Below, one piece after another: positions 50,756 to 54,738 of a stretch of DNA of 64,000 nt. The DNA is from Escherichia coli (GTDB lineage: Bacteria; Pseudomonadota; Gammaproteobacteria; Enterobacterales; Enterobacteriaceae): assembly GCF_001677475.2 (NCBI RefSeq), contig NZ_CP015229.1; one strand, 5' to 3'. Position numbers and translations under genes: made by a program. Numbering within the stretch: position 1 is the stretch's first letter; each line of letters opens with the position of its first letter. Below the pieces are notes generated by a model. That model was not told where the DNA came from. It was given only the letters and a program-made list of their open reading frames with translations, and made no database searches.

Positions 50756-51694
50756 TTAACCCGCGAGACGCTGGTATTCTTTGGCAATTTCACTCGCCAG
50801 AATGGCGTTGTTGAACACCAGTTGGATGTTGGATTTCAGGCTGTCACCGCCGGTCAGTTCAGCAACGCGCGCCAGCAGGAATGGCGTACTTTCTTTACCA
50901 ATAACACCCTGCGCTTCAGCTTCAGCTACCGCCTGATCGATCGCCGCATTGATAGTGTGTTCCGGCATAGCAAACTGTTCCGGGATCGGGTTCGCTACCA
51001 CGAGGCCACCGTTCAGCCCGCTTTGCCATTTCACCGCCATTGCACGGGCAATTTCGCTGGCGCTGTCGAGACGAATGCTGACGTCAAACGGGCTGGTGCG
51101 GCAGAAAAACGCAGGCAGCGCTTTTGTCTGATAGCCAATTAACGGCACACCAAAGGTTTCTAAATACTCAGTGGTTAATCCTAAATCGAGAATAGATTTC
51201 GCCCCGGCACAAACAACGGTGACATTAGTATTTGCCAGTTCTTGCAAATCGGCAGAAATATCGAAGGTATGTTCCGCCCCGCGATGCACACCACCAATTC
51301 CCCCGGTGGCAAATACTTTAATTCCGGCAAGCGCCGCAATAATCATCGTTGAAGCCACAGTGGTTGCGCCATTTTTTCCGGCGGCAACAACAAAAGGTAA
51401 ATCGCGACGACTAACTTTGGTCACGTTATGCCCTTCACGACCCAGTAATTCAATTTCTTCTTTGCTTAAACCCACTTTCATCACGCCGCCAATAATGGCG
51501 ATAGTGGCAGGTACTGCGCCCTGTTTACGAATAGTTTCTTCTACTTCAATTGCGGTCTTGGCATTTTGTGGGAACGGCATCCCGTGAGAAATAATGGTTG
51601 ATTCCAGCGCCACAACCGGTTTTTTGTTTTTTAAAGCGTCCTGCACTTCCGGGGAAATTTGTAATAATTCAGGGGAAATTTTTAATTCAGACAT
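50756..51694 (-). CDS. psuG: Pseudouridine-5'-phosphate glycosidase PsuG (YeiN)
   Basis: 312 aa, indigoidine synthase A-like family. Confidence 0.9.
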   Translation of the reverse strand: MSELKISPELLQISPEVQDALKNKKPVVALESTIISHGMPFPQNAKTAIEVEETIRKQGAVPATIAIIGGVMKVGLSKEEIELLGREGHNVTKVSRRDLPFVVAAGKNGATTVASTMIIAALAGIKVFATGGIGGVHRGAEHTFDISADLQELANTNVTVVCAGAKSILDLGLTTEYLETFGVPLIGYQTKALPAFFCRTSPFDVSIRLDSASEIARAMAVKWQSGLNGGLVVANPIPEQFAMPEHTINAAIDQAVAEAEAQGVIGKESTPFLLARVAELTGGDSLKSNIQLVFNNAILASEIAKEYQRLAG

Positions 51695-52623
51695 TCTGCG
51701 TTCTCCACTAACGATATAACGTTGGCAATCGATAAATCGGGGTTATTGGTGTATTCACAGGAGAGCGCCATTGACGAACATCCCTGTGCGAAACGAACAG
51801 ATTCGGCAAACGGCATTCCGTCTACCCAACACGAAGCAAGTCCCGCCATCATGGCATCGCCCGCTCCGGTAACATTAATAACATTGGTTTTGATCGGGGC
51901 AGACCAGCCACTTTCACCGCTGATATCACTGTAATAAACGCCATCGCCGCCCATGCTCAATACCAGTCGGTTCAGGCCATGTTGATGGAACCAGGCAGCA
52001 ACTTTTGCCACATCTTCACGCCCTGACAGCGCAATCCCACTCAGGGTTTCCGCTTCAAGGCGGTTTGGCTTCAGAGTGTGGATCTGATTTAGACGGTCGC
52101 GCACTTTGACACATTTCCACGCTGAAACCGGATCGACAAATACGGGTACGTTGGCGGCATTATCCAGAATCCATGCCAGTGCCTCTTCACTGATATTACA
52201 GTCCGCGACAATGACCTTTGCCCTCTGAATAAATTCACGGTGCTGTGCGAGATATTCAGCTGTAATAGCGTTGCTAATATTCATGTCATTTATAGCAACC
52301 AGCATTTCACCGGTATTATCGAGTAATGATAAATAACTCGACGTATTTTCTCCCGGCACAATCAGGCATTTATCGACATAAACGCCAGATTGATTGGTTT
52401 GCGTTAGCAGCGATTGACCATAAAAATCACTGCCTACGGCGCTCAGTAGCCAGGCTTTGTTACCCAGCAACGCCAGGTTTTGTGCAATATTGCGCCCTAC
52501 TCCACCAGGCGTAAATTTTATTTTACCTGGATTTGAATCCGCATAATTTAATGATTCATGTGAATATCCGGCGACATCAATATTCGCCGAACCTATAATT
52601 ACGACATAATCCTTTTCGCGCAT
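51682..52623 (-). CDS. psuK: Pseudouridine kinase PsuK (YeiC), PfkB family
   Basis: 313 aa with ribokinase-type GAGD motif; stop overlaps psuG start by 13 nt. Confidence 0.85.
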   Translation of the reverse strand: MREKDYVVIIGSANIDVAGYSHESLNYADSNPGKIKFTPGGVGRNIAQNLALLGNKAWLLSAVGSDFYGQSLLTQTNQSGVYVDKCLIVPGENTSSYLSLLDNTGEMLVAINDMNISNAITAEYLAQHREFIQRAKVIVADCNISEEALAWILDNAANVPVFVDPVSAWKCVKVRDRLNQIHTLKPNRLEAETLSGIALSGREDVAKVAAWFHQHGLNRLVLSMGGDGVYYSDISGESGWSAPIKTNVINVTGAGDAMMAGLASCWVDGMPFAESVRFAQGCSSMALSCEYTNNPDLSIANVISLVENAECLN

Positions 52624-52861
52624 AGCACGTCCTCTGGTAAAAAATTACCAACCCTGTCAATCCACAAGAATATAGATACTGCAAAGACGGTTTAAACATG
52701 TGTTCATATTTAAACATGTGCTCATAGTATGCATGTTTTACGTAAAGTAAATTACCGCCAGAGAGGCAAAATGGGCAGATTTGAGCAGGCTCACAAAATG
52801 CGATTAAATGCCTGAATTACAAAAGCGAGGAATTTGTGACGGGATGCACAGAACATGAACA

Positions 52862-52892
52862 CTAAAAAAGGGCAGAAAATAATCTGCCCTTG
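52862..52892 (-). terminator. Intrinsic terminator on minus strand about 155 nt downstream of fruA
   Basis: Minus strand reads agggcaga-ttatttt-ctgccct followed by TTTTTT. Confidence 0.5.
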
Positions 52893-53046
52893 AGGAAATA
52901 ACCTTAGTGTTTGATGAACGTTTCAGGTTTCTACTGAAAGATAAAACCATTTAAATTCATAAAATTACATTCACAAACCGGTCATTCTCTTTGCGCTCAT
53001 CCAATGATACAGGGCAGGAAATTTCTGCCCTGTAACACACCTTTTA

Positions 53047-54738
53047 TTACGCTGCTTTCGCTACTGCGTCCACTTCCGGACGTTTCAGGAAGGCATAGGC
53101 CAAACCCGCCACCAGCGTACCGGCAATAATTGCTACCAGGTAACCCAGTACCGGCGTAATGGCGCCTGGGATCAGCAGAACAAACAGACCACCGTGTGGT
53201 GCCATCAGTTTCGCACCAATCGCCATTGAGATTGCACCAGTCAGCGCCCCACCCACGATACAGCACGGCAGCACTCGCATCGGATCACGGGCGGCAAACG
53301 GAATTGCACCTTCCGAAATAAAGCACAGACCAAGAACCAGAGCGGCTTTGCCACCTTCCTGCTGCGCTTTGTCGAATTTGCGACGCGCCACCATTGTTGC
53401 CAGGCCCATTGCCAGCGGTGGCACCATACCTGCCGCCATAATCGCCGCCATCGGGCCATAGGTTTGAGTACTCAGCAGACCCACACCGAACGCGTACGCT
53501 GCTTTGTTTACCGGACCGCCCATGTCAGTACACATCATGCCACCGAGGATCGCCCCCAGCAGAACCGCATTCGCAGTCCCCATGGTCTGCAGCCAGTGAG
53601 TCAACCCTTCGAGAATGCCAGCAACCGGTTTACCGATCAGGTAGATCATCGCCAGACCGACCACCAGACTGGAAATTAGCGGAATGATCAGGATCGGTTT
53701 CAGCGCCTCCATACTCTGTGGCAGTTTCAGTTGCGTACTGATTAACTTCGCAATGTAACCAGCCAGGAAGCCCGCAATAATACCGCCAATGAAGCCAGAA
53801 CCGGTGCTGACAGCCAGCATACCGCCAATCAGACCCGGCGTGAGGCCCGGACGATCGGCAATGGAGAAGGCAATATAACCTGCCAGTACCGGCACCATCA
53901 GCGCAAAGGCTGAACCACCACCAATCTGCATCAGCGCCGCTGCCAACGTACCCGGCTCTTTAAACGCTTCGATACCAAAAGCAAAAGAAAGCGCGATACA
54001 CAGACCACCTGCAACGACCATCGGCAGCATGTAAGAAACGCCCGTCAGCAAGTGACGGTAAGCGCCCGCACTCTCTTTCTTACCTTCAGTAGTCGCCGTT
54101 TGAGCTTTGCCCGCCGGTTCATACGGCGTTGCTTCAGCAACCGCTTTATCCAGTTCCTGCGCGGTTTTCTTCAGCGCCAGACCGGTAGAGGTGCGATACA
54201 TCGGTTTACCAGCAAATTTCGCCAGATCCACTTCAATATCTGCCGCCACAATCACCAGATCCGCTGCGGCTACTTCTTCGGGAGTGATTGCATTACCCGC
54301 GCCAACAGAACCACGGGTTTCAACTTTCACCCACCAGCCACGTTTTTTCGCTTCGGTTTCAATGGCTTCAGCCGCCATAAAGGTGTGTGCTACGCCAGTC
54401 GGGCAAGCAGTCACCGCAACTACGCGTTTCGGACCGCTGGCGGCAACCGGTGCTGTCGCAGCGACCGGCGCAGTGTAAGGTTTCGCATGGCCTTTGGCTT
54501 CACTCAGGAACAGCTCAGGGTGCGCAACTGCCCGGGAAATATCGCCCAGCCAGACATTTTTACCGTTCAGCGCGCTGTCGTTCGGGATGGAGTCACCGAG
54601 AACAATCGCCATTTCAGCGTCGTTCGGATTGTCGATGATTTCCAGTTTTGCTTTTCGCGCCGCCGCGCCCAGCAGGGTCTTCGCCATATAGGCGCGTGCC
54701 TGACCGAGATTAGCGTCAATAATCAGCAGCGTTTTCAT
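53047..54738 (-). CDS. fruA: PTS fructose-specific EIIB'BC component FruA
   Basis: 563 aa with duplicated IIB domains and a IIC membrane domain. Confidence 0.9.
   Translation of the reverse strand: MKTLLIIDANLGQARAYMAKTLLGAAARKAKLEIIDNPNDAEMAIVLGDSIPNDSALNGKNVWLGDISRAVAHPELFLSEAKGHAKPYTAPVAATAPVAASGPKRVVAVTACPTGVAHTFMAAEAIETEAKKRGWWVKVETRGSVGAGNAITPEEVAAADLVIVAADIEVDLAKFAGKPMYRTSTGLALKKTAQELDKAVAEATPYEPAGKAQTATTEGKKESAGAYRHLLTGVSYMLPMVVAGGLCIALSFAFGIEAFKEPGTLAAALMQIGGGSAFALMVPVLAGYIAFSIADRPGLTPGLIGGMLAVSTGSGFIGGIIAGFLAGYIAKLISTQLKLPQSMEALKPILIIPLISSLVVGLAMIYLIGKPVAGILEGLTHWLQTMGTANAVLLGAILGGMMCTDMGGPVNKAAYAFGVGLLSTQTYGPMAAIMAAGMVPPLAMGLATMVARRKFDKAQQEGGKAALVLGLCFISEGAIPFAARDPMRVLPCCIVGGALTGAISMAIGAKLMAPHGGLFVLLIPGAITPVLGYLVAIIAGTLVAGLAYAFLKRPEVDAVAKAA

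Follow-up and report, generated by a model that had tools for sequence, protein, structure and literature searches.

The window analyzed in this study, which is the whole DNA stretch of 64,000 nucleotides, contains the fruBKA-psuKGT region of E. coli. A 601-nt query found matches of 90–99% in 5425 of the 5426 complete E. coli genomes, where fruA and psuK were annotated. The fruA gene is on the - strand, encodes a polypeptide of 563 amino acid residues and ends with a TAA codon at 53049-53047, in agreement with the stop at 53047 given by an earlier note on this DNA. This codon is followed by a second TAA, and the tandem stops (TAA TAA, 53044..53049, - strand; TAATAAAA) were invariant in all window-type Escherichia alleles. 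The start of psuK is at 52623 and the intergenic region between fruA and psuK is 423 nt long. No RefSeq annotation was found in this intergenic region in MG1655 or the other strains checked, except for one call of a 48-aa protein, and a full-text literature search did not identify any published work on the 3' UTR of fruA.

Two hairpins, h1 and h2, follow the stop codons on the fruA strand, and the distance from the fruA stop to the end of the T-run at h2 is about 183–185 nt. For the 192-nt segment between the stop codon and the U-tract, a folding energy of -63.7 kcal/mol was predicted, while shuffled sequences gave -38.5 ± 4.5 (z = -5.6). The arrangement described in the earlier note, a long 3' UTR with a U-less hairpin and a strong terminator on the same strand, is thus present and spans ~185 nt. 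The distal hairpin h2 (52868..52891, - strand), identified by terminator scan and by folding, is the stem-loop of a functional-looking intrinsic terminator of fruBKA. Its sequence, AAGGGCAGA-uuauuu-UCUGCCCUU, forms a 9-bp stem with 5 G-C pairs and a 6-nt loop (-15.5 kcal/mol, z = -5.2). A run of six Ts at 52864..52869 (- strand) provides the U-tract, of which the first two Ts are also the last two stem positions. This run was invariant in 8 window-type alleles, and its place in MG1655 is about 2259536-2259541. The stem-loop at 52891-52868 and the six Ts at 52869-52864 are the strong intrinsic terminator that had been noticed on the fruA strand before. In the terminator scan, h2 was the sole terminator-like site of the - strand between fruA and the promoter region of psuK. 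Its stem was invariant in 8 Escherichia alleles, except for one A-to-G change in Escherichia sp. L005 that gives a G-U pair. As is expected of an intrinsic terminator, h2 combines a G+C-rich stem and a short loop with an adjacent U-tract, a position on the strand of the gene it follows and conservation in orthologous loci. Transcript 3'-end or half-life data for the fruA-psuK locus were not found in the accessible Term-seq, TERMITe, Rend-seq, APERO and O157 small-gene supplements.

The proximal hairpin h1 is at 53008..53034 on the - strand (core stem 53033-53009) and was identified by folding, by the terminator rule and by comparison. The earlier note had correctly recognized a hairpin without a U-tract immediately after fruA, but its coordinates, 53000-53023, are corrected here to 53034-53008. 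With the sequence ACAGGGCAG-aaatttc-CUGCCCUGU, h1 folds with -18.4 kcal/mol (z = -7.1) and starts 12–13 nt past the stop codon of fruA. E. coli intrinsic terminators require a U-rich tract adjoining the stem. The tail of h1 in the window, UAUCAUUGG, has 3–4 U in the 8 nt 3' of the stem; h1 failed the terminator rule and was absent from the terminator scan. The tails in K-12 and L005 are UAACAUUUG and UAUCAUUUG, respectively. In L005, h1 was called terminator-like by the simple rule on account of the 5 U in 8 of its tail, UAUCAUUU. In K-12, the stem of h1 carries one C-to-U change, which gives a G-U pair.

The space between h1 and h2 is occupied by an AT-rich (~33% GC) spacer of 116 nt that is specific to Escherichia (52892..53007, - strand), hereafter called the filler. 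With sensitive blastn, the filler was found in 4230 of 5426 E. coli genomes, at one place per genome, by which a mobile or multi-copy element was rejected as its source. O157:H7 has the filler of the window without any difference. Three further candidate sources were also rejected. For a decayed duplicate of the 3' end of fruA, with which the filler shares the 10-mer CCTGAAACGT, 13 of 500 shuffles scored equally well. For a copy of the DNA downstream of the terminator, 244 of 500 shuffles did. For a decayed BIME, a MAFFT alignment was suggestive, but the local scores were about those of dinucleotide shuffles (z from -1.2 to +0.5). When a profile of 8 fillers was searched with nhmmer against the masked window, the best match had an E value of 1.9 and was outside fruA.

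The 3' end of fruA and its flanks were collected from 80 species, including 75 non-Escherichia loci, and the DNA 3' of each stop was inspected. A single GGGCAG...CTGCCC hairpin with a T-rich tail followed fruA in 33 of the 75 non-Escherichia loci, among them loci of Citrobacter, Klebsiella, Enterobacter soli and asburiae, Atlantibacter and Pseudescherichia. The hairpin started 18–31 nt past the stop in all of these 33 loci except L046, where the distance was 47 nt. Measured from the stop codon, the first terminator-like stem ended at a median of 42 nt (IQR 39–46) in the 67 of 80 loci with a rule match. The window-type Escherichia alleles L003 and L004 were outliers with 178 nt. Within the psuK-adjoining loci (C. 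amalonaticus, C. sedlakii, E. soli, E. asburiae and Kosakonia), the alignment with the window began at h2. Positions 45–157 of the intergenic region of the window did not align in these loci, and the filler was not found in any of the 75 non-Escherichia loci.

The two Escherichia hairpins resemble the single outgroup hairpin in different ways. h2 is the counterpart of the one terminator that Citrobacter, Klebsiella and others have. Its U-tract and the DNA downstream of it are common to the Citrobacter and Enterobacter loci in which psuK is beside fruA, and its 10-nt 5' flank, AUUUCCUCAA, is identical in the terminator of C. sedlakii. Moreover, h1 is at the position of the ancestral terminator. 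Given the single terminator of the outgroups, the position of h1 and the flanks of h2, Escherichia therefore holds two copies of the ancestral terminator hairpin. As far as these alignments tell, the conservation of the hairpin sequence and of its position after fruA across many enterobacterial genera is beyond chance.

Substitution rates were compared between the window and three Escherichia lineages, which were E. whittamii L004, Escherichia sp. L005 and L003. The divergence from the window was 22–27% at the four-fold degenerate sites of fruA and psuK, 19–32% in the filler, 4–16% in h1, 7–10% in h2 plus its U-tract and 5–12% in the promoter and operator region of psuK. As its divergence is about that of the four-fold sites, the filler is near neutral. 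These rates indicate constraint on both hairpins and on the control region of psuK, whereas the filler drifts at an approximately neutral rate. The identities of h1 in the three other Escherichia species ranged from 84 to 96%, where those of the four-fold sites were ~75%, pointing to retention of h1 by selection. RNAalifold recovered h1 and h2 from 8 alleles with only two substitutions in the stems, both of which lead to G-U pairs. A proposed long-range central domain was rejected as a conserved structure, as its covariation support was negligible: the covariation term contributed -0.15 of -41.2 kcal/mol, and 4 of 48 pairs were compensatory while many were broken. In addition, the filler tolerates gross changes. 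In one strain IS1 is inserted in it, and in Escherichia sp. MOD1-EC7003 a 1353-bp deletion starts in the filler and reaches into psuG.

No match to the intergenic region or filler of the window type was found in ~22% of the complete E. coli genomes. The similarity of these genomes to the window ends ~25 nt inside fruA. In ABU 83972, the B2-type strain examined, and in E. albertii, the two hairpins are separated by an unrelated filler made of two inverted REPs and a linker. We take these inverted repeats, which were recognized by eye and are unannotated in the record, to be a BIME. In this BIME-type allele, h1 is a long U-less hairpin, UCAUCAUCGGGGCUGAGACAUCUCUGCCCCGAUGAUGA (-29.3 kcal/mol), whose tail, ACAAACGC, does not contain any U, and h2 is GAGGGCAGAAACAUCUCUGCCC plus U5 (-15.1 kcal/mol). 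Neither in the window nor in the B2 allele is h1 therefore followed by the U-tract of an intrinsic terminator. Different from the filler of the BIME allele, that of the window is not a G+C-rich, multi-copy palindrome; it is single-copy with 33% GC. Both alleles keep two hairpins around unrelated fillers, and thus the architecture is maintained while the content of the spacer is free to vary. The two alleles may have arisen by one event followed by replacement of the filler or by two independent events. Within one allele, the loops of the two hairpins were more alike than loops of different alleles were.

RNA from this intergenic region was found on Hfq. Table S1 of Bar et al. (2021; PMC8175672), which re-tabulates the Hfq RIL-seq data of Melamed 2016 for K-12, contains an entry named "fruA.psuK.IGR". 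It was recorded in stationary phase only, with 42 chimeric fragments and one unique partner. Its SIC of -1 means that it was never second in a chimera, the longest nearby U-tract was 6 and the sRNA score was 0.00103, compared with the authors' threshold for sRNA candidates of > 0.1 (PMC8175672). The conditions covered were LB exponential, stationary and iron-limited, and a fructose condition was not among them. The partner is listed in the same sheet with 60 interactions and a SIC of 0.969744, values that belong to RprA, from which we infer that the partner is RprA. The sequence of RprA was confirmed against annotated rprA genes. The RILseq software presumably estimates UTRs as 100 nt by default, so that an "IGR" label would mean a distance of > 100 nt from either gene. 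As this label would exclude the start of psuK and the 6-U tract fits h2, the chimeras most likely come from the distal 3' UTR of fruA. The RIL-seq data as tabulated show that RNA from the intergenic region reaches Hfq in K-12, where its behavior is that of a target-like partner rather than that of an sRNA.

A possible site of contact with RprA is the stretch just 5' of h2 (52893..52910, - strand), which includes the U-rich GGUUAUUUCCUC. In K-12 this site, CACUCAGGUUAUUUCC, is complementary to nt 35–50 of RprA; in MG1655 it is at about 2259566-2259581. The predicted duplex of 8 + 6 bp has -21.5 kcal/mol, which is in about the top 0.1% of 11,634 background 22-nt windows; the translation start site of psuK gave -18.3 kcal/mol with RprA. 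The allele of the window, CACUAAGG, has an A in place of the central C of K-12 and hence one mismatch to RprA, and its best nearby duplex is in a shifted register with -15.4 kcal/mol. The C needed for the match is also an A in the other aligned alleles that are not K-12-like.

We interpret the tail of fruA as the end of the fruBKA unit as it was remodeled in Escherichia, with h1 as a relic, a neutral filler and h2 as the working terminator, and assign this reading a probability of roughly 60%. The ancestral state would be a single intrinsic terminator, GGGCAGAGAUUUCUCUGCCC plus U6-8, within ~20 nt of fruA. A rearrangement or insertion in the Escherichia lineage would then have split the terminator region, leaving the hairpin present twice. 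At the old position, h1 would have lost its U-tract and most likely terminates poorly, as judged from its tail. RNA polymerase would read through the 116-nt filler and would stop at h2 plus the six Us, which would insulate the promoter and operon of psuK. The RIL-seq entry with its nearby 6-U tract fits transcription that reaches the distal UTR. By analogy, h1 was most likely kept as a stable 3' stem-loop. Once the AU-rich filler had been cut by an endonuclease or trimmed in the 3'-to-5' direction, this stem-loop would shield the mRNA of fruBKA. REP/BIME elements in 3' UTRs stabilize the 3' ends of mRNAs, for instance that of malE-malF. We liken the suggested role of h1 to that of REP hairpins, which are found at this position in the alternative allele. 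The conservation of h1 could also come from another function, such as one in translation termination 12 nt upstream or a role at the DNA level.

Within this locus, h1 might still end a substantial fraction of the transcripts despite its poor tail. Taken further, h1 would be the main, U-poor terminator of fruBKA and h2 a back-up for transcripts that leak through, in which case the filler would be mostly untranscribed and fruBKA would lack a genuine long 3' UTR. We regard such tandem terminators as unlikely. That h1 folds more stably than h2 (-18.4 vs. -15.5 kcal/mol), is conserved exactly at the ancestral terminator site and is followed by some U, including the 5 in 8 of the L005 allele, argues for them. 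However, the 3–4 U in 8 of the window did not suffice for the scan, and a U-rich tract beside the stem is generally needed by the intrinsic terminators of E. coli. Moreover, h1 of B2 and E. albertii was kept and even lengthened even though no U follows it, and the intergenic RIL-seq reads are most simply explained by read-through of h1.

A 3'-derived small RNA had been suggested for this region by the earlier note. In one form of this proposal, RNase E would cut in the AU-rich filler and release a fragment of ~50–150 nt that ends in h2, that is, a type II 3' UTR-derived, Hfq-binding RNA, acting either as a regulator in trans or, in strains of the K-12 type, as a sponge or decoy of RprA. Such a fragment would use the terminator of fruA itself, and U-rich GGUUAUUUCCUC, the hairpin h2 and the six Us have the makings of an Hfq-binding module, to which Hfq would be predicted to bind from the sequence. 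RNWUU motifs are somewhat frequent in the filler (7, compared with 4.4 ± 2.0 in shuffles). The stationary-phase chimeras on Hfq with a single partner matching RprA are also in its favor, and the complementarity of the K-12 allele to RprA (-21.5 kcal/mol) favors the sponge version. An IGR-labeled sponge has a precedent in PspH, which was labeled pspG.qor.IGR at first and had Spf as its sole partner (PMC5145812).

Other features argue against this possibility, which we consider quite doubtful. Since the filler drifts at an approximately neutral rate, it holds no conserved candidate seed; neither seed nor body is conserved above that rate (19–32% vs. 22–27%), and covariation is negligible. The sRNA score of 0.00103 is far from the threshold of 0.1 and the SIC of -1 is that of a target; the entry in the K-12 RIL-seq data has neither several partners nor a second position in chimeras. 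The match to RprA hangs on a C that is replaced by an A in the window, and the 41-mer of K-12 was found exactly in only 913 of 5426 genomes. In addition, ~22% of E. coli, of the B2 type, have an unrelated filler in place of that of the window, and the IS1 insertion and the deletion are tolerated. A scan for sigma-70-like sites did not find any such promoter on the - strand between 53400 and 52892. An Rfam scan of 51500–54500 at E ≤ 10 gave no match at the gathering score and only sub-threshold chance matches. The Erwinia amylovora sRNA hrs29, from the nfo/fruA intergenic region, was rejected as a relative; it converges on fruA, and no homology to it was found here. With a nearly neutral filler, negligible covariation, replacement and interruption of the filler and a target-like RIL-seq entry, the suggestion of a 3'-derived sRNA regulator is not supported. 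In particular, a conserved 3'-derived sRNA is not supported, and the region is an ordinary, evolutionarily plastic long 3' UTR. A fragment bound by Hfq in some strains may still exist.

A more speculative possibility, which we consider improbable, is that a regulatory RNA has newly arisen from the neutral insertion. The C-for-A change of the K-12 type would complete a 14-bp match to RprA, and the Hfq-bound distal 3' UTR of fruA would serve as a target, decoy or sponge of RprA, giving a strain-specific link between the fructose operon and RprA/RpoS.

The opposite strand was also considered. A gene on the + strand, whether for a small protein or for an sRNA that extends from the vicinity of h2 to the h1 complement, is highly improbable. 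A promoter-like match on that strand (TGAACA-16-AATAAT, 9/12) is present at 52856-52883, but neither the -35 nor the -10 hexamer is conserved even within E. coli, and for this reason the reading of a + strand promoter or sRNA fails. A weak match to the Rfam family DapZ at 52963-53040 (25.6 bits, E = 0.15) is far under the gathering score of 56 and consists of the complement of h1 followed by CCUUUUAUUA. A 48-aa "hypothetical protein" on this strand is annotated in one RefSeq genome, that of strain MBT-5, but its frame is interrupted by two stops in the window. The 12-codon open reading frame that overlaps the terminator, MNTKKGQKIICP* (52855..52893, + strand), had rightly been called spurious in the earlier note; its coordinates there, 52854-52892, were one base off, and the translation from that position has an internal stop. 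It is spurious because its ATG is private to the window allele, being AGG in the other aligned E. coli strains, and K-12 has a one-base deletion. On the - strand, another 48-aa open reading frame is frameshifted in L004 and L005. A small protein gene was rejected for either strand, as no open reading frame is conserved in frame and length.

Equally hard to credit is an attenuator-like switch, in which the 3' arm of h1 and the 5' arm of h2, able to pair since both hairpins are copies of the same sequence, would form an anti-terminator, so that read-through into psuKGT depends on whether h1 forms, for example with a ribosome at the fruA stop. Two mutually compatible hairpins are indeed kept in both alleles, and with the 5' arm of h1 masked and the 3' arm of h2 untranscribed, the predicted MFE fold pairs the two arms in question. 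However, cross-pairing is a trivial consequence of duplication and was predicted only under this unrealistic masking: a ribosome at the stop codon covers only ~15 nt, h1 still forms with nt 1–16 masked, and once the RNA is complete, h2 re-forms even with all of h1 masked. The arms are also ~115 nt apart, and psuK has a strongly conserved promoter and operator region of its own. To our knowledge there is no physiological link between fructose uptake and pseudouridine catabolism, which also counts against a switch. The model was rejected, as its geometry does not fit.

The elements of the fruA tail, an intrinsic terminator, a 3' stem-loop and a long 3' UTR, are of known kinds, and the novelty is modest, lying in the architecture of a duplicated terminator with interchangeable fillers at the fruA-psuK locus. 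If the reading of a relic h1, a neutral filler and a working h2 is true, this is an ordinary operon end that needs no annotation beyond "fruBKA terminator, long 3' UTR". It would also be a clean natural example of how a 3' UTR is lengthened, by duplication of a hairpin whose proximal copy is U-less and nevertheless retained. The space between the copies would be a dumping ground, in which unique AT-rich DNA, a BIME, IS1 and deletions are found. Neutral, transcribed spacers capped by a terminator are a possible substrate for 3' UTR-derived sRNAs and sponges, and the RprA match specific to K-12 hints at this. For the scanning of genomes, the lesson is that an sRNA should not be deduced from a long structured 3' UTR and a strong terminator alone, and that comparing the substitution rate of the UTR with that of synonymous sites is a cheap way to separate the two readings, spacer and sRNA.

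Among known systems, the type II 3' UTR-derived Hfq sRNAs include CpxQ, UhpU, SdhX, MalH and GlnZ (for the definition, see PMC12704781). Similar to these, the tail of fruA has a long 3' UTR, the terminator of the parental gene, a U-rich flank 5' of the hairpin and six Us; its filler is also AU-rich with RNase E-like motifs, and its RNA in K-12 is on Hfq. Different from these, it has no conserved seed and evolves at an approximately neutral rate, and its sRNA score is 0.001, whereas the scores of cpxP.3UTR, uhpT.EST3UTR, sucD.EST3UTR and malG.3UTR ranged from 0.35 to 0.96 in the same tables (PMC8175672). PspH, a sponge of Spf from the 3' UTR of pspG, is alike in the IGR label given by RIL-seq, in its position downstream of a gene and in having a single sRNA partner (PMC5145812). 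However, PspH was validated experimentally and may own a promoter (PMC5145812), whereas the pairing of the fruA tail with RprA is only predicted, and for the K-12-type allele only. Similar to 3' stabilizers of the REP/BIME type, h1 is a stable U-less stem-loop just past the stop codon and upstream of the real terminator, and the allele of B2 and E. albertii carries two REPs at the very site of the window filler. The window allele differs in that it has no REP and that its h1 is derived from the terminator and not from the REP family. There is also a likeness to the fruBKA terminators of Citrobacter, Klebsiella, Enterobacter soli and asburiae, Atlantibacter and Pseudescherichia, which are like h2 in their stem, their U-tract and the psuK-proximal DNA downstream, and like h1 in their stem and their distance from the stop codon. 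Different from these outgroups, Escherichia has two copies of the hairpin, which are 116 nt apart in the window type and ~145 nt apart in the BIME type, and of which the stop-proximal copy is without a U-tract.

Roughly 22% of the complete E. coli genomes had no match to the window-type region at the 3' end of fruA. A different allele of this gene end was found in E. coli ABU 83972 (locus L082, 3177-3420) and in E. albertii (locus L006, 3652-3872). Its likeness to the window stopped ~25 nt inside fruA, and the last 8 fruA codons therefore differed. In this allele, the gap between both GGGCAG hairpins was filled by two inverted REPs and a linker, which we take to be a BIME. Moreover, the loops of the two hairpins, which in the window are the U-tract-less hairpin after the fruA stop (h1, 53034-53008) and the distal terminator copy (h2, 52891-52868), were more alike when taken from one allele than when compared across alleles. 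This pattern suggests gene conversion or, alternatively, that the hairpin was duplicated twice independently.

The fruA 3' end of the window (52850-53250, 401 nt) was at most 98.3% identical to that of any complete E. coli genome, and the AT-rich filler between h1 and h2 (52892-53007) was 100% identical to the filler of O157:H7 strains. Four-fold degenerate sites of the window diverged from those of four E. coli strains by 11-14% over the last 459 nt of fruA, compared with 0-8% over the first 228 nt of psuK. Judged from these identities, the segment 52850-53250 looks locally mosaic or recombinant.

Insertions and deletions were also found at this locus. In E. coli strain 203740, an IS1 sits in the filler at the equivalent of window position ~52980, between fruA and the distal part of its 3' UTR with the terminator. 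In Escherichia sp. MOD1-EC7003 (locus L002, 3775-3776), 1353 bp are deleted between the equivalents of window positions 52925, in the filler, and 51573, in psuG; h2, psuK with its promoter and the beginning of psuG are missing. With an additional deletion toward psuT, the psu operon of this species appears to be decaying.

In the K-12-like allele (locus L084, 602-617), CACUCAGGUUAUUUCC, the equivalent of window 52894-52909, is predicted to pair with nt 35-50 of RprA (8+6 bp, -21.5 kcal/mol), and the window allele has one mismatch to RprA at these positions. This complementarity matches the Hfq RIL-seq pair of fruA.psuK.IGR, the label of this intergenic RNA in K-12, with RprA, which was recognised by its partner values and was represented by 42 chimeras (PMC8175672). 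In the same table, the fruA coding sequence had 11 chimeras with one partner in exponential phase (PMC8175672), and the tabulated values of this sole listed partner match CyaR.

Upstream of psuK, two copies of the direct repeat CACATGUUUAAA were found on the minus strand (52720-52709 and 52702-52691), of which the second shares bases with the -35 element of a promoter-like sequence match, TTTAAA-16-TATATT (52696-52669, minus strand). The block AAAACATGCATACTATGAGCACATGTTTAAATATGAACACATGTTTAAAC (52691-52740 region) was unchanged across E. coli, E. whittamii and two other Escherichia lineages, apart from a single-base difference in one strain of E. coli, whereas neutral sites in the same comparison were ~25% different. 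This block is probably an operator for a regulator of psuKGT.

In Erwinia amylovora, a screen for Hfq-regulated sRNAs reported hrs29, a 207-nt RNA between nfo and fruA that is encoded on the nfo strand, convergent with fruA (PMC4070566). A search for a sequence relation between the hrs29 region and the window found none. In seven loci of Enterobacter, Lelliottia and Huaxiibacter (L022, L024, L030, L033, L036, L050 and L079), a REP-like palindrome (GUCGGGUGGCG...CCCGAC) lies immediately 3' of the fruA stop, at 5-50 nt, and is followed by an A-tract/U-tract terminator, which looks bidirectional and would serve a convergent gene too. As in Escherichia, the fruA end at these loci places a U-less hairpin ahead of the real terminator.
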